Origin: Acidobacteriaceae bacterium
GTDB taxonomy: Bacteria > Acidobacteriota > Terriglobia > Terriglobales > Acidobacteriaceae
DNA: 64,000 nt
NCBI GenBank assembly: GCA_027449545.1
Contig: DAIDLI010000138.1
Location: 7,977-71,976 of the forward strand
Reading direction: 5' to 3'
The translations under genes were made by a program, and so were the position numbers. This document shows, piece by piece, positions 399-20,385 of this stretch; within the stretch, counting starts at the first letter, position 1; the number at the start of each line of letters is the position of its first letter. Under the pieces are notes generated by a model. It was not told the origin of the DNA. It saw only the letters and a program-made list of their open reading frames with translations, and did not search any database.

Positions 399-2318
399 TC
401 AGACCACCACCCGGACGCCCGCGGTACCGGGCTGAGTTCGAGTGATGTGATTGCGGTCCAGCAGTTCGAGCAGCGGAATGGCATGCTTGCGGGTGAGGCC
501 GGTAAAGCTCTTGAAGCGCGCCACATCGAACTGCTCCCCGCGGAAGGCCTGCAATTTTTCAGAAAGTCCTGCCACTGCCTCGCAGTGAATGAACAAATCA
601 TCCGATCCCAGCCGCAGCAGTCTCCTGGTGCGGAGCAGGAGCGTGACGGTTGCGTGCATCTGCTTCTCCGTGAGCTTGAGGCGCTCCGCGACCTCGCGCA
701 GAAGAGGCGGAGCGACGCCGGCCATGCGGTATTCGCGTTCCACCACGGCCATTCGCTTGGCTTCCACCTCGGGAGTGCCGGAGGATTCGGGAAGGGAAAG
801 AATCTCCGCACCGGACAGCTTGCCTGCTGCAATCAGACGCCGCACGCTGAAGCCAAACACACACTCACCGAGGCCCGAGCGGGAATGCAATTCTGCGCGG
901 CCGAGGGTGTGGTTCCTCGCCGCAGTGAGCGCATGCAACAGCACGGCTTCTGCCTGGGTGATTGCGACGGCGCTAAGATAGAAACCTTCGGCTTCTCGGG
1001 CGGCGATGATTTCACCCCTTCGCACCAGCGGCTCCACAATTCTGCGCACCGCGTCTGTTTTGAGTCCTGTCTCACGCGCCAGTTCGAGCGTGCTGATCCC
1101 GGCCGTTCCGCGCCTGCCGATGCGGAGGGCCAGTTGCTGCTCCCTATCCGCATCGCGAACTTGCAGCAGCCATGCCAAGGAGTCCGCTTTGCGTTGCCGG
1201 CGCGGGGCAGCGATCTCGAGCACGCGGCCGCCTCCGAGGGTGGCTGGCGGCGAAGGCTGCCGCAGCACAAAGCGATCGCCGGGAACGAGCACCTGGGGAG
1301 TTTGGAGTTGCAGACGCACCAGCGCCGTTCCGCCTGCGGGGGTAGTCTCCGCGCGATATAGAAGCACCGTGGCAGCAACGTCTCCCGCGAAGGCATGCAG
1401 GCGCACGGAAGCGCGGTGCCGCAAGGGCCTGACGTGCGGCAGGAGATGTATCTCCGCGTCAAGCGTCTGCGTCGCGCTCAGGGTATGCTCGGGAACCAGC
1501 ATCTGTCCGCGCCACACCTCGCGGTGCTCAACCCCGCTGAGGTTCAGCGCCACCCGGCTGGGCGCGGATGCCCGGCTCACGGCGCTGCCGTGCACTTGAA
1601 TCCCTCGTGCCCGGACGCGCGTGTCTCCCGGCAAAAGCGACATCATGCTTCCCGCCTCAACCGCGCCGCATTGCAGCGTTCCTGTCACCACGGTCCCAAA
1701 CCCACGCATCGCGAAGGATCGATCAGGAGGCAGACGCGGCACAAAGTCCTGTCCGCGCGCGGGAATCCGGCCGGCCAATCTCGCCAGTTCGCAGCGCAGT
1801 GCCTCGATTCCCTGCCCTGTTACCACGGAAACCGGCACCACTGTCGCGTCACGCAGGAAGGTTGAACGTAGCCAGCTTCTCACTTCGCCCAGAGTCGATT
1901 CCATCCGCTCCGCATCCACGGCATCGCTCTTGCTCAGCACCACAAGACCTTGCTCGATGCCGAGCAGAGAACAGATGTCGAGATGCTCGCGCGTCTGAGC
2001 TTTCACCCCTTCATCCGCGGCAATCACCAGCATCACCGCCTCGATGCCGCCAGCACCCGCCAGCATGTTGCGGATGAAAGCATGATGCCCCGGTACATCG
2101 ATCAGGCTCACCTGGAACTGCGCCCCTGTTGCGCCGCTCAAGCGCATGGCGGCAAAACCGAGATCGATGGTGATTCCGCGCTTTTTCTCTTCCGGCAGAC
2201 GATCGGTGTCAGCGCCTGTGAGTGCCCGCACCAGCGCGGTTTTCCCGTGGTCGATGTGCCCGGCGGTCCCGATGATGACGGATCGCACCGCATCCGGTTG
2301 CGACGAGGCGGCTTTCAT
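399..2318 (-). CDS. selB: Selenocysteine-specific elongation factor SelB
   Basis: [17 protein letters not shown] and DVPGH GTPase motifs. C-terminal winged-helix region ends ...[14 protein letters not shown]. Confidence 0.97.
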
Positions 2319-3751
2319 GCCGGCAGCTCCAGTTTCACCAAATGAGCGGCAAGCGTTTCGTCCTCCTCCGGAAACACCGTGCGCAGATCCAGCAGCACCT
2401 CACCGCGCCGGGTGCGGGCAATCACCGGCGGATCCATTTGCCGCAAGGCCTTCAGCAGGTATTCTTCGCTCATCGCCGGGTGCCGCAGCGCCACGGCGAA
2501 TCCCCGCAGCACCGCTCCTGGAGTCGTGCCGCCACCGATCACGCTGCGCACCGGCACCACCTTCGCTTCCAGAGGCGATGCCTCCAAATGATCCACCAGC
2601 TTCTGGCAACGAGTTCGCAGTTCGGGTGCGGTGATAAGCATCATGGCGATCGCAGGCAGTGTCTGCTCCTGGTCCGCGAGATAAGCCAGCAGGGTTGCCT
2701 CGAGCGCCGCATAGGTGAGCTTGCCGGGACGAAAGGCCCTGGCCAGCGGATTCGTTCTCATCTGTTCGATCAGCCTGCATTGTCCGACCAGCAACCCGCA
2801 TTGCGGGCCTCCCAACAGCTTGTCGCCGCTCGCTGCAACCAGGCTGACTCCGCTCGCCACACTGCGGATCCAGTTGGACTGCTCGCCCATCCCGATCTCC
2901 GCCAGGCGCACCACACAACCGGTGCCCTGGTCCTCGAAGACTGGAATAGCCGCTTCGCGTCCGAGAGCGACTAATTCGTCCAGGCTGGGCTGTGCGGTGA
3001 AGCCTTCAATTCGAAAATTGGAGCGGTGGACACGCAGGATCAGCCGAGTCTCCGGGGTGATGGCGCGCGCGTAATCGGCAATGCGCGTGCGATTGGTGGT
3101 GCCCACTTCGCGCAGGATCGCGCCCGACTTGCGCAGAATTTCGGGAATGCGGAATCCGCCGCCGATCTCCACCAGTTCGCCCCGCGAGACGATGACTTCT
3201 CCGCCCTCGGCCAGCGAGTTCAGCGCCAGAAAGGTTGCACCCGCACAATTGTTGAGCACCATGGCTGCGTAGCGGGAGGGGTCGAGGTCTGCGCCCCGCG
3301 CGGCGAGCACGCGCAGAATTAGCGCCTCGGCGTGATCGTCCCTGCGTCCGCGCTTTCCGGTGTGCAGATCGAATTCGAGATTGCTGTAGCCCGCCGCCAC
3401 CTGAGTCAGGTTGCGAATCGCAGCCTGGCTCAAAGGCGCGCGGCCGAGATTGGTCTGCAAAATCACTCCGGTGGCGTTGATCACGCGCCGCAGAGAGGGG
3501 CGGCTTGTGCGCTGCGCTTGTTCGGCGATGGCCCGATCCAGTTCCCGCAGGCGCGCCTGCAATCCGGCCTCATTCAGCAGCCCGTCCAATATCTCCCGGC
3601 GGATCGCATCCAGCACATGCCGCGCAGCCGCGGCCACCACCTCGCGCGGCCAGCGGTCCAGCAGCGCCCGCGCAGGTTCACCGTCGAGCAGGCGGCCAAG
3701 CTGCGGCAACTGCCGGCAGAGATCTTCGGTCTGTGCCACATCCTTCAGCAA
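2315..3751 (-). CDS. selA: L-seryl-tRNA(Sec) selenium transferase (start uncertain; TTG 3751 chosen)
   Basis: [29 protein letters not shown] and [10 protein letters not shown] (PLP lysine). Stop overlaps the selB ATG; start overlaps the selD stop. Confidence 0.95.
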
Positions 3752-4839
3752 AGTACGATCCGTGGAGCGCCTTCCATCACGCTGCCGATCTCTGCTGCCG
3801 GGTACCCCTGGGCGCACAGGTCGCTCACCAATGCGTCTGTCACCTCGGGATCAGCCGAGATGAGCAGGCCTCCCGCGGTTTGGGGATCGAACAGCAGCGT
3901 CCGTAACTCGTCCTTCACCGGGCCCGCGGTTTCCACCATGCATTCGGCAAAATCCCGATTGGCGCGCAACCCCGCAGGGATGGTGCCCATCGCAATGCAT
4001 TCCAGCGCTCCCTCCAGAACCGGCACAGCCTCCGTCGCAATGGCCAAGCGCACGCCGCTGGCAAGCGCCATCTCTCGGGCGTGGCCGATGAATCCAAAGC
4101 CGGTCACATCCGTCATTCCGTGCACATGGCCGTTCCAGCGGGCCAGAACCTCTGCGGCGTGCCGGTTGAGCATGGTCATGGATTCGATCGCCGCCTCGAT
4201 CCAGCGGGAATCGGCGCGACCCGCCTTCAGCGCAGTGGTGATGACGCCCGTGCCCAGCCGCTTGGTGAAGATCAGCTTGTCTCCGGGGCGCGCGCCGGCG
4301 TTGGTCAGAAGCTTGTCGGGATGCACCATACCGGTGACCGCATAGCCGAACTTGATCTCGGCGTCGCGCACGCTGTGCCCCCCCAGCACCACGCAGCCAG
4401 CTTCGCGCATGGTTTCGAGACCACCCAGCATGATCTTCTCCAGAATCCGCAGATCGCCGTCTGCGGGAAAACAGACCATGCTCAGCGCGGTGAGGGCGGT
4501 TCCTCCCATCGCGTACACATCGCTGAGGGCATTCGTGGCGGCGATCCTGCCGAAGGTGAAGGGATCATCGACCATCGGGGTGAAGAAATCGACTGTCTGC
4601 ACCAGCGCCCGGTCAGGGGCGATGCGAAAGACACCGGCGTCGTCGGCGTTGTCGAACCCGACCAGCAGGTCCGGATGGCTTTGCTTCGGCAGCCGGGACA
4701 AAACGGAGTTCAGCAGCCCGGGGGCCAGCTTGCTGGCGCACCCCCCAGCCCGCGTCGTTTGCGTGAGATGAACAGTTTCCGGAGTGCCCGCATCTAAGAC
4801 TGGGTTGTCGACTGGGTTGTCTTCCGTTATCGACGACAT
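3745..4839 (-). CDS. selD: Selenide, water dikinase (selenophosphate synthetase), Cys form
   Basis: AGGCASKL active-site motif (TGC codon), DDAGV, QTVDFFTP, NALSDVYAMGG, DPQTAGGLL. Confidence 0.96.
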   Translation of the reverse strand: MSSITEDNPVDNPVLDAGTPETVHLTQTTRAGGCASKLAPGLLNSVLSRLPKQSHPDLLVGFDNADDAGVFRIAPDRALVQTVDFFTPMVDDPFTFGRIAATNALSDVYAMGGTALTALSMVCFPADGDLRILEKIMLGGLETMREAGCVVLGGHSVRDAEIKFGYAVTGMVHPDKLLTNAGARPGDKLIFTKRLGTGVITTALKAGRADSRWIEAAIESMTMLNRHAAEVLARWNGHVHGMTDVTGFGFIGHAREMALASGVRLAIATEAVPVLEGALECIAMGTIPAGLRANRDFAECMVETAGPVKDELRTLLFDPQTAGGLLISADPEVTDALVSDLCAQGYPAAEIGSVMEGAPRIVLC

Positions 4840-4913
4840 GAAAACTCTGATGCCGCTGCAGCTCCCCCTGGCTGTCCCAACGCAGTTGCATCACCAATTT
4901 CGAGCAACTTTGC

Positions 4914-5008
4914 GGAAGCGCCTGGGTTCTGGTGATCCCCCCGGTCTTCAAAACCGGTGGTCGTTCTTCACGGGCGACGGTGTGTTCGACTCACACGCGC
5001 TTCCGCCA
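4914..5008 (+). tRNA. selC: tRNA-Sec (anticodon UCA)
   Basis: 95 nt. 8-bp acceptor stem GGAAGCGC/GCGCTTCC, anticodon arm CCGGT-CTTCAAA-ACCGG, long variable arm, T arm GTGTG-TTCGACT-CACAC, discriminator G, encoded CCA. Confidence 0.97.
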
Positions 5009-5393
5009 TCTCTCCGGTTGCTGACCGCCTCCAACGGTGATTCGTACTGAAGATGGAAAGCGATGGGGAGACCTGCCTGGCATCGAACCGGCAGCCCGTC
5101 CCATGCACGGCGCGCCGGTCGCGCGGAATCGGAGAACCTCCCCGAATCTCCGGCTTTTCGGGCGGATCCTCCCTCCGTAAGCTAAATCACCAGTTTCTGT
5201 GATCCATTGCACCGCATTGCCTCGGACACCTCATTACGATGTGTCGCATGCATTGCGTACCGCGCTCGCTCAGGTTGATTATGGCTTCGAACGTGAGCGG
5301 CATGGAGGGGGCAGAACTCCGCCAGGATCCGATCGGCTGCGTGCGCCATGGGGGAGGAAGAAGCTTCGCTTGATTTACGGAAACGGAGGAGAT

Positions 5394-6473
5394 ATGTACC
5401 GGATTCCGATCTTCCTTGCACTTGCACTACCTGGCGCAGTCCTTGCGCAGAATCTTAGCGAAACCTCAGTTCCTGCATCGCCAGTGGCCGCAGAAACAAC
5501 CGTGACTACGGACGCACCGGCACGGACATCGAGCGATCGAGGAGTGCTCTCGTACACCGATCTCAACGCCAACGTCAACAGCATCGGCCACATGGTCACC
5601 ACCGGCGTCGGCCTGGGCTATCAGTTCAACCAGAATGTAAGCGTGGATGCATACGTGCCGTTCTACTATGTGTCGGCAACCGCCACCACCACGAACTCCA
5701 CGGGAGGAACTGAAAACGTCACAACCACGGATCAGGGGATCGGCGATCCATCCTTCGCTCTTACGCTGTCGTTCCCGAATCAGGTGCTGGATTACACATC
5801 CCGGGTGACCACCTGGGTTCCGGTGGCCGATATGAACAGCGGCTTCACCACCGGATCGGTGCTGGTGGACTGGACCAGTCATTTCAGCAGGCCGGTGGGC
5901 CGTTTGCTGCCGTTCGGGCAATTGGACATCGCGAACACTGCTCCTGAGACTCCGCTCTTCCTTCTCCCCTACACGGCGGAAGGCTTCAATGCGCGCTTTG
6001 AGGCGGGGTCCTACGCTTCGCTGACAAGGATCTTCAGCACAGGTGCCTCGTTCTACTACGTTCTTCCCTCCGGGAGCCAAACCCTCTATAGCCGTGAGAT
6101 TCACAATCCGGCTATGGGGAACGGCGGAAGCGGTGGGGGGGCAGCATCTTTCGTCAGAACTCTCGGCACCGGAACCGGCAGCGGCTCTGGAAGTGGCTCC
6201 GGAAGTGGTAGCGGAGACGGCAGTGGATCCGGGAGCGGGTCCGGCAGTGGATCCGGAACCGGCAGCCCCAACCGAAACGGGTTCATGACCCAGCAGGTGA
6301 CCGTAGGTAATGACCTTACCCGTGATCATGGGATCGCAGCCTGGTTTACAGCCGAGATTACGCGGTTCGTCGATCTGCAGGTTGGGTATGACCACAGCTA
6401 CGGGTATGACCTCAACACGGTGTCCTTTGGCTTGAGGGCCAATCTTTCGCGCGCCTTTGGCCGCAGGCAATGA
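5394..6473 (+). CDS. Exported, probable outer-membrane beta-barrel protein with Gly/Ser-rich insert
   Basis: GGAGGA RBS before ATG 5394, signal peptide, amphipathic aromatic-rich strands, (GS)n tract at about 6165-6266. Confidence 0.65.
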   Translation: MYRIPIFLALALPGAVLAQNLSETSVPASPVAAETTVTTDAPARTSSDRGVLSYTDLNANVNSIGHMVTTGVGLGYQFNQNVSVDAYVPFYYVSATATTTNSTGGTENVTTTDQGIGDPSFALTLSFPNQVLDYTSRVTTWVPVADMNSGFTTGSVLVDWTSHFSRPVGRLLPFGQLDIANTAPETPLFLLPYTAEGFNARFEAGSYASLTRIFSTGASFYYVLPSGSQTLYSREIHNPAMGNGGSGGGAASFVRTLGTGTGSGSGSGSGSGSGDGSGSGSGSGSGSGTGSPNRNGFMTQQVTVGNDLTRDHGIAAWFTAEITRFVDLQVGYDHSYGYDLNTVSFGLRANLSRAFGRRQ

Positions 6474-6518
6474 TGCGAGTCCGACTGGAGATTTGACCGC
6501 GGCTAAGGACGTTCACTC

Positions 6519-8363
6519 GTGAGGTCCAGAATCCTCATCTCGATGGCTGGCCTTGTGGCTGCGGGCATATTGATCCTTCTTGGCTGGAGCGGCTTTGCCC
6601 AGCACGGAAATGCCGCAGCAGCAGATATGCTGCTGCGCCTGGAACAAGGACGGCGTGGATTCTCCACTGCAAATGTGATTTTGCTGTCCATCGACGACGA
6701 GACGGTCCGCCGCTATGGTCCCCTGCCGATCGACCGTGCGGTCCTGGCCAAGGCCCTGGATCGGGTGGCAAGCGGCTCGCCGTCCGTCTTGGTTATAGAT
6801 ATGTTGCTGTCTGAGAAGACCACTCCGGCTGCTGATGCCAGCCTGGCCGATGCGCTTTCCAGGTTTCCCAAACTCGTCCTGGCAACCGCTCTGGAGATCC
6901 CGGCGGGCAGCAGACCACCCCAGTGGATCGCGCCTCTTCCTGAGTTTCGGGTTCACGCAAGCGCCCTCGGACACGTCCACATCGAACCGGATCCTGATGG
7001 TGTGGCTCGCACTCTTCTCCTCTCCAAGAGCAACGGCGACCAGCGCCGCTGGGCACTCGGCTTTGAGGCATTTCGTCTGCAGACTGGAAGGCAGGACCCT
7101 GTCCTTGAATCGGCGGATGCTCTGCGGGTAGGCCCCTATCGGGTTCCTGCGGCCCGTTTCAATCATCGATTATTGTGGATCCACTATGCCGGCCCGGAGG
7201 GAACCTTTCGGCATGTCTCTTTAGCAAATGTGCTTGATGGCCGGGAGCCGGTCTCTAATTTCCGCGGAAAGGTCGTGATTCTCGGGGTTACGGCACAGGG
7301 CGCGGGCGGAGCTGGCGACCGCATCTTCACGCCCTTCTCCGCCGGCCTGGGGATGAGCGGAATTGAGATCCATGCCAATGTCTTCCTCACGCTGGCGGAT
7401 GGCGCCTATCTGGTGCCTCTGAACCCGCTTCAGGAATTGCTGTCGGTGCTGACGATTGCCGCGTTGATGGCCGCGGCCTTGTGGTGGCGGCAAGGCCGCC
7501 TCCTGATTTCCTTCGCGATGAGCGGCGTGGTGCTCATTCCCTTGCTGGCGTACGTGCTATTCCGGAGGGGCATTGTCGTGCCCCTGGCCTCCTGGATCAT
7601 TGTGCAGATCGCCGCCTCGCTGCTTGCGTTTCTAGTGCACACAGCATTCGTCCGGCGTCGGCTCCGCGAGGCCATCCTTGGGCAAAAGAACTATGCGTTT
7701 CGGCTTCAGGCGGTGGCCCATGAAATCAAAACTCCCCTCACTGCCATCGATGCTTCCAGCCAATTGATGGCTGAAGCAGACATCCCGGAGCGCAAGAAGG
7801 AAGAGATTGCACAGCGGATTCGAGGCGAGGCGGGGCGGCTGTCCGGGGTCGTGACCACCTTCCTGGACGTCGAGCGCATTGCATCCGGCGCGCTGAAGCT
7901 GCGACGCCAGCAGGTCGATCTCGCCAAGGTCGCCGCCGAGGCCAGTGAGCGCGCCGCCCTGCTGGCGCTGAAGAAGAACATCGCAATCGAGAAGGATCTC
8001 GCTCCCGCGACCGTGGCCGCGGATGAGGAGTTGCTCCAGTTCGCCATTTATAACCTGCTCGTGAACGCGATCAAGTTCAGTTCGGAAGCCAGTTCGGTTC
8101 GGATCACCGTTCGTTCGTCCTCGCAGGGCGCGCGCCTGGATGTGAGCGATCGGGGGTGCGGCATCGAGCCCGCCGCGCAGAAGCATATCTTTGAGCCCTT
8201 CTACCGAGCTAAACCGCGGGGTGAAGGCCAACCCGGAACGGGTGTCGGATTGGCTCTGGTGCATGAGATTGTCACCCAGCATGGAGGCAGAGTGGAAGTG
8301 GCCAGCGAACCGGGAAAAGGATCGAGGTTCACGGTCGTGCTTCCGCGAGAGGGGATGGAATGA
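6519..8363 (+). CDS. CHASE2-domain sensor histidine kinase
   Basis: CHASE2-like periplasmic region (IDDETVRRYGPLP, GVEIHAN-like GIEIHAN), three TM helices, H-box AHEIKTPL, N-box NAIKFS, DRGCGI, GTGVGL. Confidence 0.9.
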   Translation: MRSRILISMAGLVAAGILILLGWSGFAQHGNAAAADMLLRLEQGRRGFSTANVILLSIDDETVRRYGPLPIDRAVLAKALDRVASGSPSVLVIDMLLSEKTTPAADASLADALSRFPKLVLATALEIPAGSRPPQWIAPLPEFRVHASALGHVHIEPDPDGVARTLLLSKSNGDQRRWALGFEAFRLQTGRQDPVLESADALRVGPYRVPAARFNHRLLWIHYAGPEGTFRHVSLANVLDGREPVSNFRGKVVILGVTAQGAGGAGDRIFTPFSAGLGMSGIEIHANVFLTLADGAYLVPLNPLQELLSVLTIAALMAAALWWRQGRLLISFAMSGVVLIPLLAYVLFRRGIVVPLASWIIVQIAASLLAFLVHTAFVRRRLREAILGQKNYAFRLQAVAHEIKTPLTAIDASSQLMAEADIPERKKEEIAQRIRGEAGRLSGVVTTFLDVERIASGALKLRRQQVDLAKVAAEASERAALLALKKNIAIEKDLAPATVAADEELLQFAIYNLLVNAIKFSSEASSVRITVRSSSQGARLDVSDRGCGIEPAAQKHIFEPFYRAKPRGEGQPGTGVGLALVHEIVTQHGGRVEVASEPGKGSRFTVVLPREGME

Positions 8364-9745
8364 GCCACAAACTTCCTGTACTCCTGGTGGATGACGAGGA
8401 AGGGATCACCTTTCCGATCGCTATATTCCTGGAGGCCAAAGGCTACTCGGTCACCACCGTTAACAGCGGAAGGGAAGCCCTGGGTCTGGCCTCGGCCGGG
8501 CAATTCAAACTAATTATTACGGACATTTACATCGACCGCGTTACCGGCCTGGACATTTTGAACGCGGCGAAAAGGGCAATGCCCTCCTGCGCCGTGATCC
8601 TGATGACCGCTAAGGGCTCCATCCGGACGACCGTCGAGGCGGAATCGAGCGGCGCATTCGATTACCTCGCCAAGCCGATCGATCTGAACGATCTGCTGCA
8701 CGTGCTGCAGCGCGCAGAGCAATCATGGGAGACGCTGGAACCCGCGCCGTCGGAGACCATTGCAGACAATGAAATGTTGGGGTCGGCACCCGTTATGGTG
8801 CGGTTATACAAGGAGATCGCACGCGCGGCGCGCTCCCAGGCGACGGTGCTGATCCGCGGCGAAACCGGGAGCGGAAAAGAGCTGGTAGCGCGCGCGATCC
8901 ACTCTGCCAGTGCCAACGCGCGACAGCCGTTTCTGCCCGTGGATTGCGCAGCCATTCCCGAGAACCTGTGGGAAAGCGAGCTGTTCGGCTCCACACGCGG
9001 CGCATTTACCAGTGCGGAACGAGATCGCGCCGGCATCCTCGAAGAAGCTCACGAAGGCACGGTCTTCCTGGATGAGATTGGGGAGATTCCTATCTCTTTC
9101 CAGGCAAAGCTGCTCCGCCTCCTGGAAGCCAAAGCCTATCGTCCGGTAGGCGCGAGCACCGCAAAGGCGGTGAAGGCGCGGATTCTGGCGGCCACGCATC
9201 GCCACCTGGAGGCAATGATCCAAGCCGGAGACTTCCGCGCCGACCTCTACCACCGCTTGAACGTGCTGCAAATCGAGGTGCCGCCTCTGCGCGAGCGGAC
9301 GCAGGATATTCCTCTGCTGGCACACCGTTTTCTGGCCGATGCCAATGCTCGACTGGGGCGCAGCGCGCGGCTGGAGCCGGCCGCCCTCGCCGTGCTTGAA
9401 AGTTACGGATGGCCGGGCAATGTTCGCGAGTTGAAGAACGTCATCGAGCGCATGGTGGCAATGTCCTCTCCCGGTCCCTTGCGAGCGGAAGAAGTTGAGC
9501 AGGTCCTGATTGCCGCCACTCCGCAGATGCCGGTGGCCGTCACCGCCCGAACCTTGGAAGAAGCGGAAAAAGAGCATGTGCTGGAGGCGCTCCGAGCGTG
9601 TGGAGGAAATCGGTCCCTGGCGGCTGAACGCCTCAACATTCAACGCCGGACTCTCTACAAGAAGCTTGATCGCTGGGGTCTTTTGCACGAAGGGCACACC
9701 CCTGAGCCCAAAACGCAGGGATCCGGACACCCGCAGAAATCCTGA
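8360..9745 (+). CDS. NtrC-family sigma54-dependent response regulator
   Basis: Receiver domain (LLVDDE...TD...K), Walker A GETGSGKE, GAFTSA loop, Walker B FLDEIGE, Fis-type HTH. Start overlaps the kinase stop (ATGA). Confidence 0.95.
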   Translation: MSHKLPVLLVDDEEGITFPIAIFLEAKGYSVTTVNSGREALGLASAGQFKLIITDIYIDRVTGLDILNAAKRAMPSCAVILMTAKGSIRTTVEAESSGAFDYLAKPIDLNDLLHVLQRAEQSWETLEPAPSETIADNEMLGSAPVMVRLYKEIARAARSQATVLIRGETGSGKELVARAIHSASANARQPFLPVDCAAIPENLWESELFGSTRGAFTSAERDRAGILEEAHEGTVFLDEIGEIPISFQAKLLRLLEAKAYRPVGASTAKAVKARILAATHRHLEAMIQAGDFRADLYHRLNVLQIEVPPLRERTQDIPLLAHRFLADANARLGRSARLEPAALAVLESYGWPGNVRELKNVIERMVAMSSPGPLRAEEVEQVLIAATPQMPVAVTARTLEEAEKEHVLEALRACGGNRSLAAERLNIQRRTLYKKLDRWGLLHEGHTPEPKTQGSGHPQKS

Positions 9746-9780
9746 AGCTTTTCTTTTCAGCAATTTGCATCCTCACGGTT

Positions 9781-9797
9781 TTGGCATTCAGCGTGCC
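9781..9797 (+). promoter_or_regulatory. Candidate sigma54 (-24/-12) promoter
   Basis: TTGGCATTCAGCGTGCC: GG (9783-84), N10, GC (9795-96). 21 nt before the FecR-gene ATG and just downstream of a sigma54 activator gene. Confidence 0.6.
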
Positions 9798-9817
9798 CTA
9801 TAGAAAGCGAGGCTACG

Positions 9818-10495
9818 ATGTCCCGAACTCACTACAAAGTCGTCGCTGCGGTTGTCCTGTTCATCCTGGCTCTGCCCCTCTTCGGGCAGAACCAGATCAC
9901 AGGACAACTGTCGGCGGTAAAAGGCAACGTCAGCCTGATACGCGATCAGGGCCAGCCTGTGCTCCTGCACGCAAGCGACAAAGTTCATTCTGGCGATGCA
10001 ATCCTCACGGATACCAAATCTTCCGCGACGATGAGATTGCTAGATGGGAGCACTGTCCGCATTTACCCCATGTCTCATGTGGAAGTGCGTTCCGAGAGCG
10101 GCGATTGGAAGGAGTTCCTCCATGTCGTGCTCGGTAACGTGCGGTTCCAGATCGAGAAACTGAGTGGCCGCCCGAACCCCAAAGTCGTCACCACACCAAC
10201 GGCAATCATCGCTGTGCGGGGAACGATCTTTGCGGTGGCAGTGAAGCAGAACGGGGACACCCAGGTGGGTTTGCAGCAAGGACTGGTCGCGGTCGCAAGC
10301 CTGCTCCAGCCGGAGCAACAGCTCCTCGTTCGGCCAGGACAGGAGCTCTGGGTGCGCCAGGGAGAAGGCCCTACCCAGCCCCACCGGATGCATCGGCCCA
10401 TGCCAGGGCTCGCTGCGCCCGGTTCATCTGGATTCGGCATGAGGGGCCCAAGCGGGGCAAAGCACCCAATGACTACGGGCAGGCACGGGCCATAG
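9818..10495 (+). CDS. Exported FecR-domain protein
   Basis: Signal peptide, GDAILTDTKSSATMRLLDGSTVRIYP, TPTAIIAVRGTIFAV, and a Met/Gly/His/Pro-rich tail. Confidence 0.8.
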   Translation: MSRTHYKVVAAVVLFILALPLFGQNQITGQLSAVKGNVSLIRDQGQPVLLHASDKVHSGDAILTDTKSSATMRLLDGSTVRIYPMSHVEVRSESGDWKEFLHVVLGNVRFQIEKLSGRPNPKVVTTPTAIIAVRGTIFAVAVKQNGDTQVGLQQGLVAVASLLQPEQQLLVRPGQELWVRQGEGPTQPHRMHRPMPGLAAPGSSGFGMRGPSGAKHPMTTGRHGP

Positions 10496-10542
10496 TGTAG
10501 TGAGTTCGAGACACCGCCCTCACATCCAAACGGAGGTGAGCC

Positions 10543-11211
10543 ATGAAAGCACTCGTAAAAGGACTCTTGATTGCAAGTCTTCTGACCGTTCCAGTCTTGG
10601 CGCCGGCACAGCATCGAGGTGGCGGAGGTGGTGCCAGCCGAGGCGCCGGAGTAGGCACGATGCAACGCGACCAGCTCCGGATCCATGATCGGCTGCACGC
10701 CCAGGATCAGCTGAAGACGAAAGATCAGTTGCGGACCCGGGATCGTGATCGGCTGCATACACAGGATCAGCTGCAAACCCAGGATCAGCTGAAGACGAAG
10801 GATCAGACCAGGGATCAGCTGAAGGATCGCGACCGGCTTCACACCCAGGATCAGGTCGTCACAGCCGACCAACTGCTGACCAAGGATCAGCTGAAGACCA
10901 AGGACCAGACCAAGGATCAGCTGAGAGACCCGATCCAGGACCGTGACCGCCTCAACACGCAGGACACCCTGCTCACGGCCGACCAACTGCTGACCACGGA
11001 CCAGTTGAAGACCAAGGACCAGACCAAGGATCAGCTGAGAGATCCCATCCAGGACCGCGACCGCCTCAACACGCAGGACACTCTGCTCACGGCCGACCAA
11101 CTGCTGACCACAGATCAGCTGAAGACCAAGGATCAAACCAAGGACCAGATCAAGGACCCGACGAAGGATCAGCTGAGGGATCCCGACCAACTGCGCATTC
11201 ACGATCGCTGA
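10543..11211 (+). CDS. Secreted low-complexity repeat protein (DQLKTK / DRDRL repeats)
   Basis: GGAGG RBS, signal peptide, Gly-rich linker, then about 170 aa of D/Q/L/K/T/R repeats. Confidence 0.85.
   Translation: MKALVKGLLIASLLTVPVLAPAQHRGGGGGASRGAGVGTMQRDQLRIHDRLHAQDQLKTKDQLRTRDRDRLHTQDQLQTQDQLKTKDQTRDQLKDRDRLHTQDQVVTADQLLTKDQLKTKDQTKDQLRDPIQDRDRLNTQDTLLTADQLLTTDQLKTKDQTKDQLRDPIQDRDRLNTQDTLLTADQLLTTDQLKTKDQTKDQIKDPTKDQLRDPDQLRIHDR
10825..11166 (+). repeat. Coding tandem repeat, 3 x 114 nt (38 aa)
   Basis: Units start at 10825, 10939 and 11053 (DRDRL[HN]TQD..TADQLLT.DQLKTKDQTKDQ..DP..). Confidence 0.85.
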
Positions 11212-11397
11212 TCACAGCGGACCAGCTGCAAATGAAGGATCCGCCGCAAGCGCGAATGCAGCAGGAAATCCGCGCCCGCACCGCCGGTAACAACCCGGCG
11301 GGAGCGGGGACTGGCGAACGAGGAACAAATCCCGAGCAAGCAAGCGGGGGAGTGAGAGTAGAAAAAAACGAAACGTGTCTTTTCCTATCGTTGCAAA

Positions 11398-11426
11398 AGC
11401 CCGCTGGAAACAGCGGGCTCTTTTTT
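11398..11426 (+). terminator. Intrinsic terminator
   Basis: AGCCCGCTG-GAAA-CAGCGGGCT followed by CTTTTTT. Confidence 0.85.
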
Positions 11427-11508
11427 CGAGTTTTCAGGCTCGATTCAACTGAGCGCGCGTACCGCAAAACGACTGCTCCCAAAGCCGCGCTATGCTGGAG
11501 CATAGACG

Positions 11509-12315
11509 ATGCAGTCGCAACATCCATCGAAAGCGCCGCAGTTGTGGCTGGCCTATCCGGCCGATCTGCGCGATCCGGGTGCGATCGCGGAGTGCCGCGC
11601 GCTGCTTAGCGAGGAAGAGCAGGCGCGCGCGCAGCGGTTTCACTTCGAGCGCGATCGCCGCGCTTTTGTGGCGGGTCGCGCCCTGGCACGAATCGCGCTT
11701 TCCCATGCGCATCCGCTGCCGCCGCATTCATGGGAATTCAGGAATAACCCCTACGGAAAGCCCTCCGTTGAGCCGGAGTGCGGATTGCGGTTCAATATTG
11801 CCAACTGCGCAGAACTGGTGGTCTGCCTGCTCGCGCCCGACTCCGAGGTGGGCGTGGATGCGGAGCCGTTCGCGCGGGCCGGGCAAATCATGGGCATCGC
11901 GTCGAAGGTATTTTCCGCGACAGAGCTGGCACAGATGACGGCACTCCATGATTCGGAACAGCCGGACCGCGCTCTGTCGCTCTGGGTGTTGAAGGAAGCC
12001 TACGTGAAGGCGCGAGGCCTGGGGCTTTCCCTGCCGCTGGAAGAATTTTCGTTTGTCTTTGAAAGCGACGGCTCCATCCGGCTCGCAATGCACGCCGGTC
12101 TGGATGACCGGCCGGAACGGTGGCGTTTCTGCCTGTTCGATCGCGCCGATCATCGCGTGGCGCTGATGGTGGAGAACGCGAGCAGCCAGGCCCCTCGTTT
12201 GGAGGAATTGCACTCCGCGGCGGCTGGCGTGGAAGTATGGGAGGCGCGGCCGCCGCACAGTCCCGGGATGCGTCTGAGCGTTCCAGGACCGCAATGGTTT
12301 TCCGCCGCGCCCTGA
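11509..12315 (+). CDS. Sfp-type 4'-phosphopantetheinyl transferase
   Basis: NPYGKP, VGVDAE, WVLKEAYVKARGLGL. Convergent with the PKS. Confidence 0.93.
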   Translation: MQSQHPSKAPQLWLAYPADLRDPGAIAECRALLSEEEQARAQRFHFERDRRAFVAGRALARIALSHAHPLPPHSWEFRNNPYGKPSVEPECGLRFNIANCAELVVCLLAPDSEVGVDAEPFARAGQIMGIASKVFSATELAQMTALHDSEQPDRALSLWVLKEAYVKARGLGLSLPLEEFSFVFESDGSIRLAMHAGLDDRPERWRFCLFDRADHRVALMVENASSQAPRLEELHSAAAGVEVWEARPPHSPGMRLSVPGPQWFSAAP

Positions 12316-12327
12316 CCGGCGCGAGAG

Positions 12328-15300
12328 TTATTTTGCAGCTGCCGCTTCCTGCTCCGCCAGCAGCGCCTTCAAAGTCCCGGCAAAGGTCGTGACGTACGGC
12401 TCGAACAGCATCACCATGTGCTGGGTGGGCACCTCGATGATCTCCACACCGCCCAGCGCGAGATCCTTCCAGCCCAGGGTCGGGTCGTCGATCCTGCCCA
12501 GAACCTCGGGGCCACGGTCGGCGGCGCGCACCTGCGTGATCTTTCCGGGGAATGGCTTGAAGGTGTACTTGTCGAGCACGCGCCAGTGGATGCGCGAGAT
12601 CCAGTGAAAACGCAGCGCAGGCGGAAGCGTGCGGCCCAGCTTGCGATACACCTTGCCGGCCATGGGAAAGACATAGGCGCTTGTGAACTCGTCCCAGAAA
12701 TAACGCGCTTTTTCGCGCATCTTGCGCGACAAATAGCGATATCCTTCCCGGCGAATGTTGCCCCAGAACTTTTGCAGCTTCACCTCAGTACCAAAGTGTT
12801 GCCCACTGCCGGGAACGCGCACATCGAACATCAGCACGGCGGCCGGCATGATGCCCTGCTCATGAAGCTGCCGCGCCATCTCGTAGAGAACAAAGCCGCC
12901 ATAGGAGGCGCCGCCGAGCAGGTAAGGTCCGCTGGGGTAGAACTCGCGCATCTCGCGAATGTAGAGCGCGGCCATCTCCTCGATGGTGAGGTCCTCTCGC
13001 TCGGGCTCCGCCACCAGCGGCGACTGGAAGGCGTAGAAGGGCTGATCGGATCCCAAAGCGCGGGCCAGTTGCTGGTAGAAGAGAACGTCTCCGCCCACCG
13101 CATGCACGCAGAAGAGCGGCGGCCGGCCGCCGTTGGGCTGAATGGGAACCAGAGCCTTCCATGCCTTCTTTTCCGTGGGGGCATGATCTGCGGAGGGCTT
13201 GCGCGATCGATCGATGACAGCGGCGAGCTGGCGCACGGTCCGCGCCTCAAACAGCGTGGCGAGTTCAAGGTCTGCCCGAAATGCCCTTTTGATCTTGGCG
13301 ATCAACCGCACGCCGGTAAGCGAATGGCCGCCCAGCTCGAAGAAGTCGTCGTCAGTGCCAACCTGCTCCACACCCAGCAATTCCCGCCACCACGTTGCCA
13401 GCGTGGCTTCGGTGCCGCCCAGCTCGATCTGCGCCGGAGATGCGTCCGTGCGAGAGGCGGGCAAGGAGAAAGCTGGCGATGGCGCGGGCCGTGTCAGCGG
13501 CTCGCCCAAAGCAACCACGGCCGCTGGCGTATGCGCCTGCAGGATGCGGGTGAGTACCTGAACGCCGGCATCCGGAGCAATGCCGGTCCGCACGGGAACG
13601 TCGAAGGGACGATCGGCGAGCGCGTGTGCCGAGCGCTGCTGAAGCAGCATTGCCGGGTCCACGATGCGCCGCATCGTGAAGCCTTCGATCTCCGCCAGAA
13701 TTTCCCCCTGCTCGTCGAAGACGGTGATGTCGAAGGTCTCCACTTCGCTGCGCCGGCCGCGGCTCTCGCACGCGCGGATGTGACTGAACAGGCACGCGGG
13801 AAGGCGCCGGTAGACGCGCAGATGGCGATAGGTGATAGGCAAGAAGAGATCGTCGCAGCGGTCGTAATCGTGGGTCAGATACAGGCATGCGCCGGTGGCC
13901 ATATCGAGCAGCGCCGGATGCTGGCGATGGTCGGCGACGTCGGCGGCGAACTGCGGGTCGAGCTCAATCTCAGTCAGAGCCTCGCCCTGGCCGAGATACA
14001 GTTTGCGCAGCGAATGCCAGCGCGGGCCGAAGCTCAGGCGAATTTCCTGGCGGGTATGTCGATCGCCGCAAAAGACAATCTCGCGATTGCGGCAACGCGC
14101 CGCGATAGTGCTGCGATCGACGGGGGATCCTGGGCGGGTGCGGCACGCGGCCACGCTACCGGTGGAGTGCTGAATCCAATCTTGATCGCGCGATAGAACG
14201 GCAAACCGGAAGCTATGGCCACCCGATCCCTCTTCTCCATCGCGCTGCAACTGCACCCGCACCTCTCTGCTTTCGCCGTCGGCAACCGCCAGGGGCGCCT
14301 CGAAAAAGACATCGCGGAATTCGATGGCGCGGTGCGCGGAGTGGCGCGCCCATGCGCCGGCCACCAACTCAAGCTGCGCGGTGCCGGGCATGATCGCGGG
14401 GCCTTCCTTGACGCGGTGCTCGGCGAGCGCCCAATGATCGCGGCTGGAAAAACGTCCGGCAAAGACCATGCGATCGGGCGCGTCGAGCAGGCGCTCCTGC
14501 AGCCAGGGATGCGGCGAGAAGGCGCGCGCCGCCATGCCCACCTCGCGCCATGCGCCCCAGTTCACAACCTGGACGGACCCCTTGCGGCTGAGCGCGAAGG
14601 CATCCAGGAATGCATTGGCCGCGGCATAATCCACCTGGCCGGCAGGCGGATCAATGGAGCTGATCGAAGAGAACAGCACCAGGCTGCGCAGCGGAATGCC
14701 CTGAAGTGCCTGCTCCAGAACCAGCGTGCCCTGCACTTTGGGAGCAAGCACCCGGGCCGCGCTCTCCGCGGATTTGAGCAGCAGCGGAGCGTCGTCAAGA
14801 ACTCCCGCGGCGTGCAAGACACCGTCCATCCCCCCGAAGCGCTCTTGCGCCAGCGCCACTGCGGCGCGCATCTGTGCCAGATCGGTCACATCGGCTTGCG
14901 CGACGGCAAGGCCACCGCCCAGAGACCGGATCTCAATGAGCTTGCGCAGCCGTTTGCGGTCCTGCTCGCTCAGCCCGGGAGCCTGCAGTGCCGTCTCCCA
15001 TGCGGACTGCGGCGGCAGGGGCGTGCGCCCTACCAGCACCAGGCGCGCCTGGAAGGTACGAGCGAGGTGTTCGGCAACCTCCAAGCCGAGTGCGCCCAGT
15101 CCTCCGGTGATGAGATACACGCCGCCTGCCCGCAGGCGCGGACGATCGGCTGCCGTGCCCAAGTCGTAGCCTTCGAGCGCTTCAACAAAACGCTCGCTGC
15201 GGCGATAGGCCACGGTCAGGTTGCCGGCAGCGCAGGTTTCGGCGAGAACGGTCTGCGCATAGCGGGCGGGCTCGGCTTCGTCCCAGTCCAGATCCACGGC

Positions 15301-18300
15301 CTGGCACGTGAAGCCCGGCAGCTCCTTGTGCAGGGTGCGGGCCACGCCGAACAGCACCGCGCGCTCCGGCGTGCCGATCGTCTCATCCTCCACCTGCTGA
15401 AGCGCATTGGAGACAATGGTCATCACCACGCTGGATGCATCGTTGGCGGCAAGGGCCTGAGCGAGAAACAACGGACTGTAAAAGCATCGTGCGAGCGTGT
15501 CGTCGAGCGGCGTGTCGTTGCCGCGTGCAACAACCGCCCACAGATGGATGATGCGTGAAGGCGAGCAGCCGGCGTTGGCGAGATCGGCGGCGAGGGCTTC
15601 ATAATCCCCGTGCTGAGCCGGCCGCAGCACCACATTGTCATCTTTGAGCGGCTGGTAATGCGCTCCGGCAGCCACCATCACTACCCGCTCGCCGCGCCTG
15701 CGCAGCGCGGCAGAGAGCGCCTCGCCGAGGCCGAGCGCATCGTGGAAGATGAGCCACGGGCCTACGCTCGCAGGTGAAGATTCAGACAGCGGCGTTGCCT
15801 TCCAAGTGCGGCGATAGAGCGCGACCGGCTCTGGACCACGCCCAGGTTCGGCCGGCGGCGCGGTGGCCGGCGTAGGCAGTTCGACGCGGTCCGGTTCGAT
15901 CCAGAATCGCTGATGCTCGAAGGGGTAGGCAGGCAAGGAGACGCGCTGCACGGAGCAGGGTACATGCAAGCGCGCAAAATCGAGATCGACGCCCGCGGAC
16001 CAGAGCTGGCCGAGCGTCTGCAATGCAAAGCGCAGGGCGGGGGCGTTCTCGCGAGGATGCGGCAGGGTTGCGTAAGCGCGCGTATGGGCGCCCCCCTGCA
16101 TGCGCGCCAGGCTGGTGAGCACGTTGCCCGGGCCGCACTCGATGAGCACCTGGTCCGGATTGTGCAAGATCTCTGTGAGGTTCTCGCTGAAGCGCACCGT
16201 GGAGCGCACATGCCGCGCCCAGTACGCAGGATCGGTGGCCTCCTCCGCTTGAATCCAGGTGCCGGTCACGTTCGAGAGATAGGGGATGCGCGGCGGATGC
16301 AGCTTCACGCTCCGCAACCGCTCCTCGAAGTCTGCCAGCATCGGTTCCATCATTGCGGAGTGGAAGGCATGCGAGGTGACGAGGCGGCGGGTGAGGATGG
16401 ATTGCTTCGCCAGCGACTCCTCGAGCGCGGCGATCTCCGCAAACGGGCCGGAGACAACGCACAGGTCAGGATGGTTGATGGCGGCGATGGAAAGTGAGCC
16501 GGCGAGCTGCAACTTCTCTGGCGCGAGCGGAACCGAGAGCATTGCACCGGGCGGCAGGCCAGCGATCATGCGGCCGCGCGCGGCAACCAGCCCCAGCGCA
16601 TCTTGCAGCGAGAAGACGCCGGCAAGGCAGGCAGCCACATATTCACCCAGACTGTGCCCCCCCATCGCCGCGGGCTGAACATCGTGCGCCATCCACCACT
16701 GTGCCAGCGCATACTCCAGCGCGAAGAGCGCCGGTTGCGTGAGCCAGGTCTGGCTAAGGCGCTCGGATGCAGATTCTTTCTCCGCCTCGCCGGGATAGAT
16801 GGCTGCGATCAGGTCCAGGCCAAGCGGTTCGCGCAAAATGCGCGCGCAGGTGTCGAGTGCATCCCGAAAGACCGGCTCGTGCTCGTACATCTCGCGGCCC
16901 ATATCCACGTACTGCGATCCCTGGCCCGAGAAGAGGAAGACAATGCCGGGCGCGGTGCGCGGCATGACTCCCTTTGCAATCTTGCGAGGATCGAGACCGG
17001 CCAGCTCGGCGCGCGCTTGTGGCGTATCTTCGACCACTACCGCGCGGCGGTGCGGAAATGCCTGCCGCCCGATCTGGCAGGTGAAGGCGACATCCGCAAG
17101 GTGCACATCCGGATGTTCGGCAACGTGTTCGGCCAGGCGCGCAAAGGCGCGATCGGCGGCAGATTCGGTTTTGGCTGAGACGGTGAGAAGTTGATACGGC
17201 TGCTGCGTCCGAATGAGCTCCGGCGGCGGGGGTGCTTCCAGAACTACGTGCGCATTGGTGCCGCCGATGCCGAGCGCGGTCACGCCGGCGCGGCGCGGCC
17301 GGTCATCCGCGGGCCAGTCGTGAAGCCGGTCGTTCACATAGAACGGGCTGTCCGCGATCTCGATCCGCGGATTGATGCGCTCGAAGTGCAGGCTGGCAGG
17401 CATCTGCGCGTGCTTCAGCGCGAGAGCTGTCTTGATCAGGCCGCTAACCCCCGCAGCCGCGTCCAGATGGCCGAGATTGGATTTCAGCGAGCCAAGCCCA
17501 CAGAACCCGGCGCGCGCGGTGGAGCGGCGAAAGGCTTGGGTGAGCGCTCGCACCTCGATGGGATCGCCCACCACAGTGCCGGTGCCGTGCGCCTCTATGT
17601 AGCTAATCTCGTCGGCGCCGACGCCCGCGAATTCGAGGGCCTCGGCGATGACCTCAGCCTGGCCCTCCACGCTCGGCGCAAGATACCCAACCTTGCGCGC
17701 GCCGTCGTTGTTGATTGCCGAACCGAGAATGACGGCGTGAATCTGATCGCGATCGGCGAGCGCCTCGTCCAGCCGGCGCAGCACCACAATGCCCAGGCCG
17801 CTGGCAAAGACAGTGCCGCTCGAGGACGCATCGAAGGAACGGCAATGCCCGTCGCGCGAGAGAATCTCGCCCTCGCGGTACATGTACCCCTGCCCGTGCG
17901 GTACCTCGATGGTGACGCCACCGGCGAGCGCCATGTCGCACTCGAAGTTGAGCAGGCTCTGACAGGCCAGGTGGACGGCCACCAGCGAGGTGGAACAGGC
18001 CGTCTGCACGTTGATGCTGGGACCGCGCAGGTCGAGCTGGTAGCTGACCCGCGTGGACAGCACATCCTTATCGTTGCCGGTCTGCTTGAGCTGGAAGAGA
18101 CCTGCCGAAGCGACGAGCCCGCGATTGGCAAGCAGGTTGTGGATCAGGTAACTGTTCAGACCAGAGCCGGCAAAAACGCCGATGGAGCCGCCCGCCCGCT
18201 GAAAAGCGCTGGGGGGATGGCCGGCATCTTCGAGTGCCTCCCACGCGCACTCCAGAAAGTGCCGGTGCTGCGGGTCCATGATGGATGCGTCGCGAGGACT

Positions 18301-18534: not shown

Positions 18535-18545
18535 CCCAGCTCCTG

Positions 18546-20385
<1,840 letters not shown>

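Follow-up and report, generated by a model that had tools for sequence, protein, structure and literature searches.

Background and the locus under study

The coupling of a two-component system to a periplasmic accessory protein under sigma-54 control is an established arrangement, of which ZraPSR is the closest described example for the locus considered here. This locus is a five-gene module in a 64,000-nucleotide stretch of DNA from an Acidobacteriaceae bacterium (contig DAIDLI010000138.1; henceforth the window, with position 1 at the first letter of the whole stretch), and encodes an outer-membrane β-barrel, a CHASE2 sensor histidine kinase, an NtrC-family sigma-54 activator, a secreted FecR-domain protein and a secreted repeat protein. 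It resembles ZraPSR in that the NtrC-type activator, 43% identical to Escherichia coli ZraR, is encoded right after its kinase, in that a sigma-54 promoter would drive the gene for a small secreted accessory protein, and in that this protein would be controlled by the very system that it probably modulates. The Gly/Met/His richness of the ZraP termini also recurs in the corresponding peptides of sister loci and, faintly, in the tail of the FecR protein and the N-terminus of the repeat protein of the window. However, the sensor domain is CHASE2 and not the periplasmic domain of ZraS, and the kinase and the activator fall so far under the NCBIfam equivalog cut-offs for ZraS (123.5 bits, cut-off 479) and ZraR (353 bits, cut-off 760) that they do not qualify as orthologs of either, the activator being below every such cut-off. 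The module also lacks an LTXXQ or Metal_resist domain, and with it an output of the ZraP/CpxP/Spy type, adds a FecR protein and an outer-membrane barrel, and has co-directional rather than divergent genes.

CorSR-curA of Myxococcus xanthus is a copper-responsive sigma-54 two-component system controlling a cluster with a multicopper oxidase (PMC3707914). The multicopper oxidase under its control parallels those sister loci in which such a gene trails the module; however, CorS is a HAMP-type sensor without CHASE2, the system has no FecR protein, Gly/Met/His peptide or barrel, and the copy of the module in the window is without a multicopper oxidase. The encoding of a secreted FecR-domain protein beside a CHASE2 sensor is known from the Burkholderia 'BiofilmReg' operon, which combines a CreB-type regulator, a LysM-FecR protein, a CHASE2 kinase and a DUF4136 protein (PMC5192318), and from the CHASE2 adenylate cyclase clusters of the Campylobacterota (PMC9239204). 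These pairs, unlike the present module, act through an OmpR/CreB-type regulator or an adenylate cyclase rather than through a sigma-54 activator; their FecR protein carries a LysM domain or is described as an outer-membrane protein, and they have no Met-rich tail, low-complexity peptide or FapF-like barrel. The likeness to FecIRA is confined to the Pfam FecR domain: the module has no extracytoplasmic function (ECF) sigma factor, TonB-dependent transducer or anti-sigma N-domain, and its FecR protein appears to be a free periplasmic protein. The initial annotation of the window held that no named system has this composition, and the literature and family searches agree, with the proviso that the FecR-CHASE2 pairing was already on record (PMC5192318, PMC9239204). 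Full-text searches recovered no account of a CHASE2/sigma-54/FecR module in Acidobacteria, nor of a link between CHASE2 and metals, and family libraries name the module proteins only generically.

Thus, the known part of the module is its regulatory scheme, while the new parts are the CHASE2 sensor, a free FecR protein whose tail is rich in Met, low-complexity peptides that evolve fast, and a FapF-related barrel that is as yet unclassified. We would give an even chance to the reading that it is a lineage-specific (Terriglobia/Acidobacteriaceae) sigma-54 two-component module for metal or envelope stress, with a logic similar to that of ZraPSR or CpxAR-CpxP.

Organization of the module and its conserved, predicted sigma-54 promoter

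In the list of open reading frames (ORFs) the unit consists of five co-oriented genes, which together with the elements that govern their expression are as follows:

5394..6473, + strand, outer-membrane beta-barrel, 359 aa (predicted fold)
6519..8363, + strand, CHASE2 sensor histidine kinase, 614 aa (Pfam)
8360..9745, + strand, NtrC-family response regulator and sigma-54 activator, 461 aa (Pfam, NCBIfam)
9755..9767, + strand, IHF-like site TTTCAG-CAAT-TTG, between the activator stop codon and the -24 element
9782..9796, + strand, predicted sigma-54 promoter, -24 TGGCA and -12 GTGC (invariant in orthologous spacers)
9818..10495, + strand, secreted FecR-domain protein, 225 aa (Pfam)
10543..11211, + strand, secreted repeat protein, 222 aa (tandem repeats, composition)
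11398..11426, + strand, predicted intrinsic terminator closing the five-gene unit (terminator scan)

This layout agrees with the initial annotation in most respects. All five ORFs lie where it had placed them, the kinase and activator genes overlap by 4 nucleotides (nt; ATGA, 8360-8363), and the single strong terminator is the best match of the scan, with a 9-bp stem containing 7 G-C pairs and a T-run (AGCCCGCTG-GAAA-CAGCGGGCT, then CTTTTTTCGA). No ECF sigma factor or TonB-dependent receptor is encoded within about 5 kb of the module, which is flanked by sel genes with a tRNA-Sec on one side and by genes for a phosphopantetheinyl transferase (PPTase) and a polyketide synthase (PKS) on the other. 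The three non-regulatory products had been described as having signal peptides and low-complexity segments rich in Gly/Met/His or Gly/Ser. The former is borne out by the N-termini of the barrel, FecR and repeat proteins, each of which displays a basic residue, a hydrophobic stretch and an A/G-x-Q motif reminiscent of a signal peptide; the latter is true of the barrel and FecR proteins, but not of the bulk of the repeat protein, which is not Gly/Ser-rich (see below).

A GG-N10-GC promoter between the activator gene and the genes for the two exported proteins had also been proposed, and it is this element that conservation singles out most clearly. The match, TGGCAT-N6-GTGC, lies 22 nt ahead of the FecR start codon (ATG). 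The pattern taken by itself shows no enrichment, with 5 occurrences in the window against 4.6 expected. However, in an alignment of the activator-FecR spacers from 13 orthologous loci, whose mean column identity is 64%, the -24 GG and the -12 TGC are invariant in 13 of 13, with exactly 10 nt between GG and GC and at a constant distance from a conserved Shine-Dalgarno sequence (GAAAGCGAGGCTA) and the start codon. The same element is found in two later-found loci (L099 and L100). Because both the motif and its spacing are invariant in otherwise 64%-identical spacers, the element is beyond what chance would produce, and this phylogenetic footprint makes the strongest case for a sigma-54 transcription unit comprising the FecR and repeat-protein genes, with a predicted transcription start near 9806-9808. 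The IHF-like block, about 30 nt upstream of the promoter, shows invariant TCA and T positions in the same 13 spacers, the neighboring positions being nearly so. The integration host factor (IHF) consensus is WATCAR-N4-TTR, and the resemblance to it suggests that IHF binds at this site.

Distribution, gene orders and metal-resistance context

About 100 loci (labeled L001 onward) were gathered by scans of genome and metagenome collections and by look-ups, and their ORFs were surveyed by phmmer. The module genes are found together in about 20 loci of Terriglobia, arranged in one of two orders, in accord with the co-occurrence that the initial annotation would predict for a genuine module. In type A, represented by the window, L001, L002/L007, L006, L008, L013 and L019, and in part by L005, L010 and L018, the order is barrel, kinase, activator, FecR and a DQLKTK-type repeat protein. 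In type B (L003, L009, L021-L024, L027 and L028) it is kinase, activator, FecR, a Gly/Met/His peptide, barrel and a ~280-aa Gly-zipper protein, often followed by a multicopper oxidase. A further arrangement, type C, was found via FecR homologs and consists of kinase, activator, FecR and Gly/Met/His peptide with no barrel:

L099, 6732-12691, type C module without barrel
L100, 6703-13794, type C module without barrel
L101, 6840-11230, type C module without barrel

The three arrangements thus define a core of kinase, activator, FecR protein and small secreted low-complexity protein, to which the barrel is a frequent though not obligatory addition.

With the exception of L101, all type B and type C loci with enough flanking DNA sit among metal-resistance genes. 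In L003 the module has a Cus/Czc RND system on either side and includes a multicopper oxidase. The neighbors in L022 are a multicopper oxidase, a CDF transporter, a MerR regulator and an RND pump, besides a fragment of a P-type ATPase. L028 combines a CDF transporter with an RND pump; in L024 an RND pump is joined by an OEP and a multicopper oxidase; L099 has CzcCBA with a P-type ATPase; L100 has two CzcCBA sets; and L009 has what by eye is an apparent P1B-ATPase fragment. DNA near-identical to the window is present in mine-drainage, groundwater, wastewater and soil metagenomes. As a side observation, a DUF4382/DUF5666 lipoprotein is encoded downstream in L099 and L100, and the same family recurs in L009, L022, L026 and L028.

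Sensor, activator and FecR-domain protein

The kinase, whose orthologs are present in all module loci, is recognized by the Pfam models for CHASE2 (PF05226, 144 bits over residues 16-317), HisKA and HATPase_c. Together with hydropathy, which places hydrophobic segments at 1-28 and about 303-380, these define a layout of N-terminal transmembrane (TM) helix, periplasmic CHASE2, three TM segments, HisKA and HATPase_c. This is the typical architecture of CHASE2 sensors, whose periplasmic domain is bounded by a TM helix on its N-terminal side and a TM bundle on its C-terminal side, with an output domain attached. Identity between the CHASE2 domain of the window and those of type B is 61-67% (61-77% across both gene orders), and the type A and type B sensors are therefore orthologous. 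The activator has the REC, sigma-54 AAA+ and HTH_8 architecture of NtrBC-class enhancer-binding proteins (Response_reg 81, Sigma54_activat 216 and HTH_8 54 bits, with AAA_lid_14 also matched), and its Walker A motif reads GETGSGKE. Among the equivalogs, AtoC and NtrC outscore ZraR. The window contains no rpoN gene.

The FecR protein (Pfam match of 52.8 bits over residues 61-157) leads from its signal peptide straight into a beta domain, at about residues 25-175, which is followed by a Gly/Met-rich tail; both the anti-sigma N-domain and the TM segment are absent from its 225 residues, and it scores 26 bits against a cut-off of 385 for the FecR equivalog in NCBIfam. In an alignment of 13 orthologs the beta domain is well conserved and the tail has the consensus QPxRMxxxMPGL..G.GM.G, with 3-12 Met across the orthologs; the Gly/Met/His/Pro tail of the window protein contains 4 Met and 4 His in 50 residues. 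Its 297 homologs bear generic names only, such as 'ferric-dicitrate binding protein FerR'. To our knowledge, free periplasmic FecR-domain proteins have no established role. The recurrence of the FecR-CHASE2 pairing in Burkholderia and Campylobacterota argues that this one may serve as a co-sensor of CHASE2.

The low-complexity secreted proteins

The repeat protein of the window starts with a predicted signal peptide and a Gly-rich stretch, retaining the start AQHRGGGGG...GTMQRDQ, after which 18-nt (6-aa) units are nested in 114-nt (38-aa) units, with hexads such as DQLKTK, DRLHTQ and LLTADQ. The mature protein of 199 residues contains D 38, Q 32, L 28, T 27, R 21 and K 17, a repeat composition by which its bulk is not Gly/Ser-rich. 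It belongs to no Pfam or NCBIfam family. A single-sequence AlphaFold model shows one long helix at 37-110 (pLDDT 82-92) and a remainder below pLDDT 50, indicating an elongated, non-globular protein; its composition, that of a highly charged polyampholyte, makes amyloid formation unlikely. The LLTADQ and LLTTDQ units had raised the possibility of an LTXXQ protein, which was rejected in view of the LKTKDQ hexads in relatives and the lack of similarity to ZraP (BLASTP against E. coli ZraP, E 0.42, no match).

Positional orthologs range from 130 to 222 aa, and the number of repeats differs among relatives. The 18-nt repeat of the window gene does not end at the stop codon but runs on out of frame:

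11207..11262, + strand, out-of-frame continuation of the 18-nt repeat, reading LITADQLQMKDPP in another frame

This apparent relic indicates the scar of an old frameshift or truncation, before which the protein would have had a longer C-terminus. The relatives L008 and L013 have a Q/N-rich C-terminal extension where the window protein stops; a related mine-drainage strain has no indel at this stop.

The peptides of types B and C (e.g. AQRGGGMGHGMGGSGMGSGHQMGGSH...), those of type B being 110-155 aa long, are secreted and Gly/Met/His-rich, and resemble the termini of E. coli ZraP in composition (HGGHGMW... and ...GMGMGYGGCGGGGHMGMGHW) without its LTXXQ core. As to more distant look-alikes of the repeat protein, homolog matches are weak and driven by composition, and three neighborhoods that were looked up gave no information. 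Secreted proteins of similar build in Proteobacteria (P0220-P0230; e.g. L096 3457-3963, from Cognatiluteimonas profundi) have an AQxRGG start and D-x-L hexads (DRLKDQDKLHDQ). These stand-alone genes encode a helical C-terminal domain with repeated LMTxxER, and one group is fused to EF hands.

The FapF-related barrel

The initial annotation had likened the barrel to FapF and COG4313 channels, and this likeness is upheld at the level of fold. An AlphaFold2 model from 38 homologs (pLDDT 70.6, pTM 0.63, strands at 80-94) leaves residues 1-45 and 237-299 disordered, the latter being a Gly/Ser-rich loop, and according to DSSP has 14 strand segments, readable as 12 strands plus two bulges. In a Foldseek search against the Protein Data Bank (PDB), 18 FapF chains (structures 5o67/5o65/5o68) rank first with E 5e-12 to 1e-9 and TM 0.57-0.66 on the target, ahead of the COG4313 channel 4rl8 (E 2.5e-8), the autotransporter EstA (about 1e-7) and porins and other barrels (1e-6 or weaker).

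The window barrel itself has no Pfam family, and the profile of its close family (A1) matches nothing in Pfam, NCBIfam or PDB. A broader profile (A2) was built from 44 diverse members, and an exhaustive profile search put the family at 499 cluster representatives. Against Pfam, A2 yields only weak OMP_b-brl matches; against PDB, FapF is the sole sequence match below E = 1, a weak one (E 0.003 over 80 positions, about 11% identity) spanning the Y-N..D..VPV, G-I-G-D and P-T-G blocks. The segment GIGDPS...GFTTG, which had prompted the comparison, thereby falls on FapF-aligned motifs; the family consensus reads APTG....G.STG, whereas the window barrel has PVA....GFTTG. If the 14 segments are indeed 12 strands, then by this alignment the PVA...GFTTG segment would lie in the FapF-aligned loop and the Gly/Ser insertion in an extracellular loop.

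The differences from FapF are nonetheless considerable. At such low identity the two share no Pfam model, the model of the window barrel has neither a plug helix before the first strand nor an N-terminal coiled coil, and it has a 60-residue disordered Gly/Ser insertion; none of the surveyed loci contains Fap genes, with fapA-E absent from the module. The likeness to FapF and COG4313 therefore reflects remote homology and not membership in a Fap system.

The window barrel has about 68 close homologs, none named and all from Acidobacteriota, and homologs at 25-35% identity occur without the two-component system. In several distant loci (L014, L016, L017, L033-L043 and L080) the barrel is paired with a secreted protein with a Gly/Met/His-rich N-terminus. 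This partner, of ~190 aa (L014 6060-6629; L017 10913-11488; L016 4148-4840), has a conserved C-terminal domain with the signature …GFKNLGxFVAAVHVSHNLGIPF… and belongs to no Pfam family. In L026 the barrel is paired with a Gly/Met-rich DUF5666 protein. A distant clade (L044-L094) has a PilZ-domain protein as its conserved downstream neighbor (e.g. L079 668-1045), which hints at a c-di-GMP-linked role of that branch; the neighbors in the distant clade (PilZ protein, metallo-beta-lactamase-fold protein, GcvT) share no theme.

The region upstream of the regulatory operon

Three elements are aligned ahead of the barrel gene:

5186..5203, + strand, palindrome ATCAC-N8-GTGAT, conserved upstream of the regulatory operon
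5208-5215, + strand, TGCACYGA block, 3' of the palindrome
5235-5240, + strand, TAnnAT box, 3' of TGCACYGA

The palindrome, a single exact copy in the window, is kept ahead of the regulatory operon whichever gene order applies, preceding the barrel gene in type A but the kinase gene in type B. The segment 5186-5240 is tentatively viewed as a candidate operator with the promoter of the barrel-kinase-activator operon. A sigma-70 promoter scan of 4800-11700 gave no match, and a sigma-70-type assignment of 5208-5240 is tentative because the 22-nt spacing from TGCAC to TAnnAT is too long for a standard -35/-10 pair. In L020 the same palindrome precedes a stand-alone barrel gene. In addition, the peptide and barrel genes of type B are separated by a conserved hairpin that is rich in G+C but lacks a clear T-run (L003 8855-9000; also L022/L021/L009/L025), and that may act as a partial terminator or an RNA-stabilizing element setting the peptide:barrel ratio.

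Potential functional mechanism and alternative explanations

These architectural and contextual observations suggest a potential mechanism for the module. The barrel, kinase and activator genes would be transcribed as a regulatory operon from the conserved upstream region with its palindromic operator. The CHASE2 domain of the kinase would sense a periplasmic signal, probably together with the secreted FecR protein, and the kinase would then phosphorylate the NtrC-type activator. The latter, with sigma-54 and probably an IHF-type bend, would fire the promoter at 9782-9796, which would drive both the FecR gene, closing a feedback loop like that of ZraP or CpxP, and the gene for the small secreted low-complexity protein. 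In the version found in the window, the peptide would have become a polyampholyte of D/Q/L/K/T hexad repeats, possibly a cation-binding or protective polymer of the periplasm or surface, and the FapF-like barrel would have moved to the head of the regulatory operon, where it might serve as an accessory channel that lets the peptide or ions cross the outer membrane. Given the metal-island context, the multicopper oxidase and the Met-rich segments shared by the FecR protein, the peptide and many barrel loops, the ancestral signal is most likely soft-metal stress, i.e. copper or silver and perhaps zinc. Since the output in the window is poor in Met and His and its flanks are not metal-related, the metal link for this copy rests on orthology with the sister loci.

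Several observations weigh against such a metal-responsive sigma-54 module. The sigma-54 contact loop of the activator (residues about 210-222) reads GAFTSA and not GAFTGA, a 5/6 match, and this change is kept in 10 of the 12 orthologs checked, the others being L028 with GAFTGA and L100 with GAYTSA. The leader from the predicted transcription start is only about 11 nt long. No repeated palindrome that could serve as an enhancer for the activator is present within 300 nt upstream of the sigma-54 promoter; the ATCAC-N8-GTGAT palindrome was considered for this role and rejected, as it too is absent there, and it is therefore probably the site of a different regulator. The repeat protein has only 1 Met and 6 His in its 199 mature residues, and no metal genes flank the type A modules of the window, L001, L002 and L008. 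Three metatranscriptomes from mine drainage, a habitat that holds relatives of the window, gave zero coverage. We know of no ligand for any CHASE2 domain. Finally, low-complexity segments rich in Met and Gly hint at Cu(I)/Ag(I) binding but do not prove it.

Of the two hypotheses put forward in the initial annotation, that of a ZraPSR-like metal or envelope stress circuit has fared better, given the conserved sigma-54 promoter and the orthologous modules in heavy-metal islands, whereas a functional-amyloid or surface-filament system is, the FapF/COG4313 likeness of its barrel aside, not supported: there is no other Fap or curli component, the repeat protein is charged, and three related modules are barrel-less. 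An alternative would make the FapF-like barrel the central effector of a dedicated secretion system, exporting the repeat protein or peptide to form a surface layer, filament, matrix or metal sponge, with the two-component system only timing production; such a system would be compatible with a metal trigger. By both fold and profile the closest solved relative of the barrel is FapF, a channel for unfolded polypeptides, and the consensus of the barrel family retains FapF-type PTG/STG motifs (PMC5557850). The placement of the type B barrel gene directly 3' of the peptide gene, the renewed pairing of distant-clade barrels with a Gly/Met/His-rich secreted protein or, in L026, a DUF5666 protein, and the largely non-globular prediction for the repeat protein point in the same direction. 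However, the kinase, activator, FecR protein and peptide persist without a barrel in L099, L100 and L101, while many barrel homologs are found in unrelated contexts. The absence of a plug helix and N-terminal coiled coil from the model, the lack of FapA-E or FapD-like protease genes, and the fact that the COG4313 relatives are channels and not secretins also speak against a secretion role. The charged polyampholyte nature of the window repeat protein makes an amyloid unlikely, and no conserved sigma-54 promoter, and hence no second one, precedes the barrel gene in either gene order. We consider such a secretion system unlikely.

Similarly unlikely, in our estimate, is a re-purposing of the module by the window lineage for a non-metal signal such as desiccation, low pH, an Al/Fe/Ca load or surface contact, in which the D/Q/K/T repeat protein would be a hydrophilin-like or Ca-binding protectant instead of a soft-metal binder. 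This would account for the loss in type A of both the Met/His richness of the output and the metal-island context, and is consistent with the stand-alone occurrence of the proteobacterial AQxRGG/D-x-L hexad proteins, some fused to EF hands, and with the rapid shifts in repeat number among relatives (130 to 222 aa). Yet the sensor domain remains 61-67% identical to the metal-island versions, the Met-rich tail of the FecR protein is kept, and close relatives of the window occur in mine drainage. The Pfam FecR domain and database names like that of FerR might invite an interpretation as FecIRA-type iron or cell-surface signaling; this is essentially excluded, as neither an ECF sigma factor nor a TonB-dependent receptor is encoded near the module and the FecR protein, at 26 bits against 385, has no cytoplasmic anti-sigma domain or TM helix. 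Chance adjacency of the five genes is in the same position, being ruled out by synteny in about 20 loci, in two orders, together with the conserved promoter.

If the preferred metal or envelope-stress reading is correct, the pairing of CHASE2, a widespread sensor domain, with a free FecR protein inside metal-resistance islands points to soft metals as a definite signal, for which the promoter at 9782-9796 would be the read-out, while the fast-evolving secreted peptides may represent a metal-buffering output of the Acidobacteria, which are dominant yet poorly studied bacteria of soil and mine drainage. Should the metal link fail, the module would remain a clear-cut, conserved case of a two-component system whose periplasmic accessory protein is under sigma-54 control. 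The barrel family, with about 500 cluster representatives and no Pfam model, lies outside the Pseudomonas amyloid systems. A more speculative proposal, which we regard as quite improbable, is that it forms a new, non-amyloid branch of FapF-type polypeptide exporters. In Terriglobia such barrels would thread disordered metal-binding peptides (Gly/Met/His-rich or, in the window, D/Q/K/T repeats), induced by a metal-sensing CHASE2/FecR/sigma-54 circuit, to the cell surface as an extracellular metal sponge or protective coat. If export of this kind were true, it would bring the first assigned CHASE2 signal and would make FecR-domain proteins general co-sensors of CHASE2.

Flanking genes and base composition

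The DNA on either side of the module encodes the following:

399-2318, - strand, selB, upstream flank
2315-3817, - strand, selA, upstream flank
3745-4839, - strand, selD, upstream flank
4914-5004, + strand, tRNA-Sec (Rfam, 74 bits), upstream flank
11509-12315, + strand, Sfp-type PPTase, downstream flank
12328-18804, - strand, PKS of 2158 aa, downstream flank

A complete selenocysteine set (399-5004) thus lies directly upstream of the module. The G+C content is 0.585-0.616 over the module against 0.63-0.667 in the flanks, which hints at acquisition beside the tRNA-Sec gene; an island integrated at this tRNA gene was considered in view of this drop, but was set aside as no att-like direct repeats were found. 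The PPTase and PKS genes on the other side (11509-18804) are convergent and unrelated to the module.

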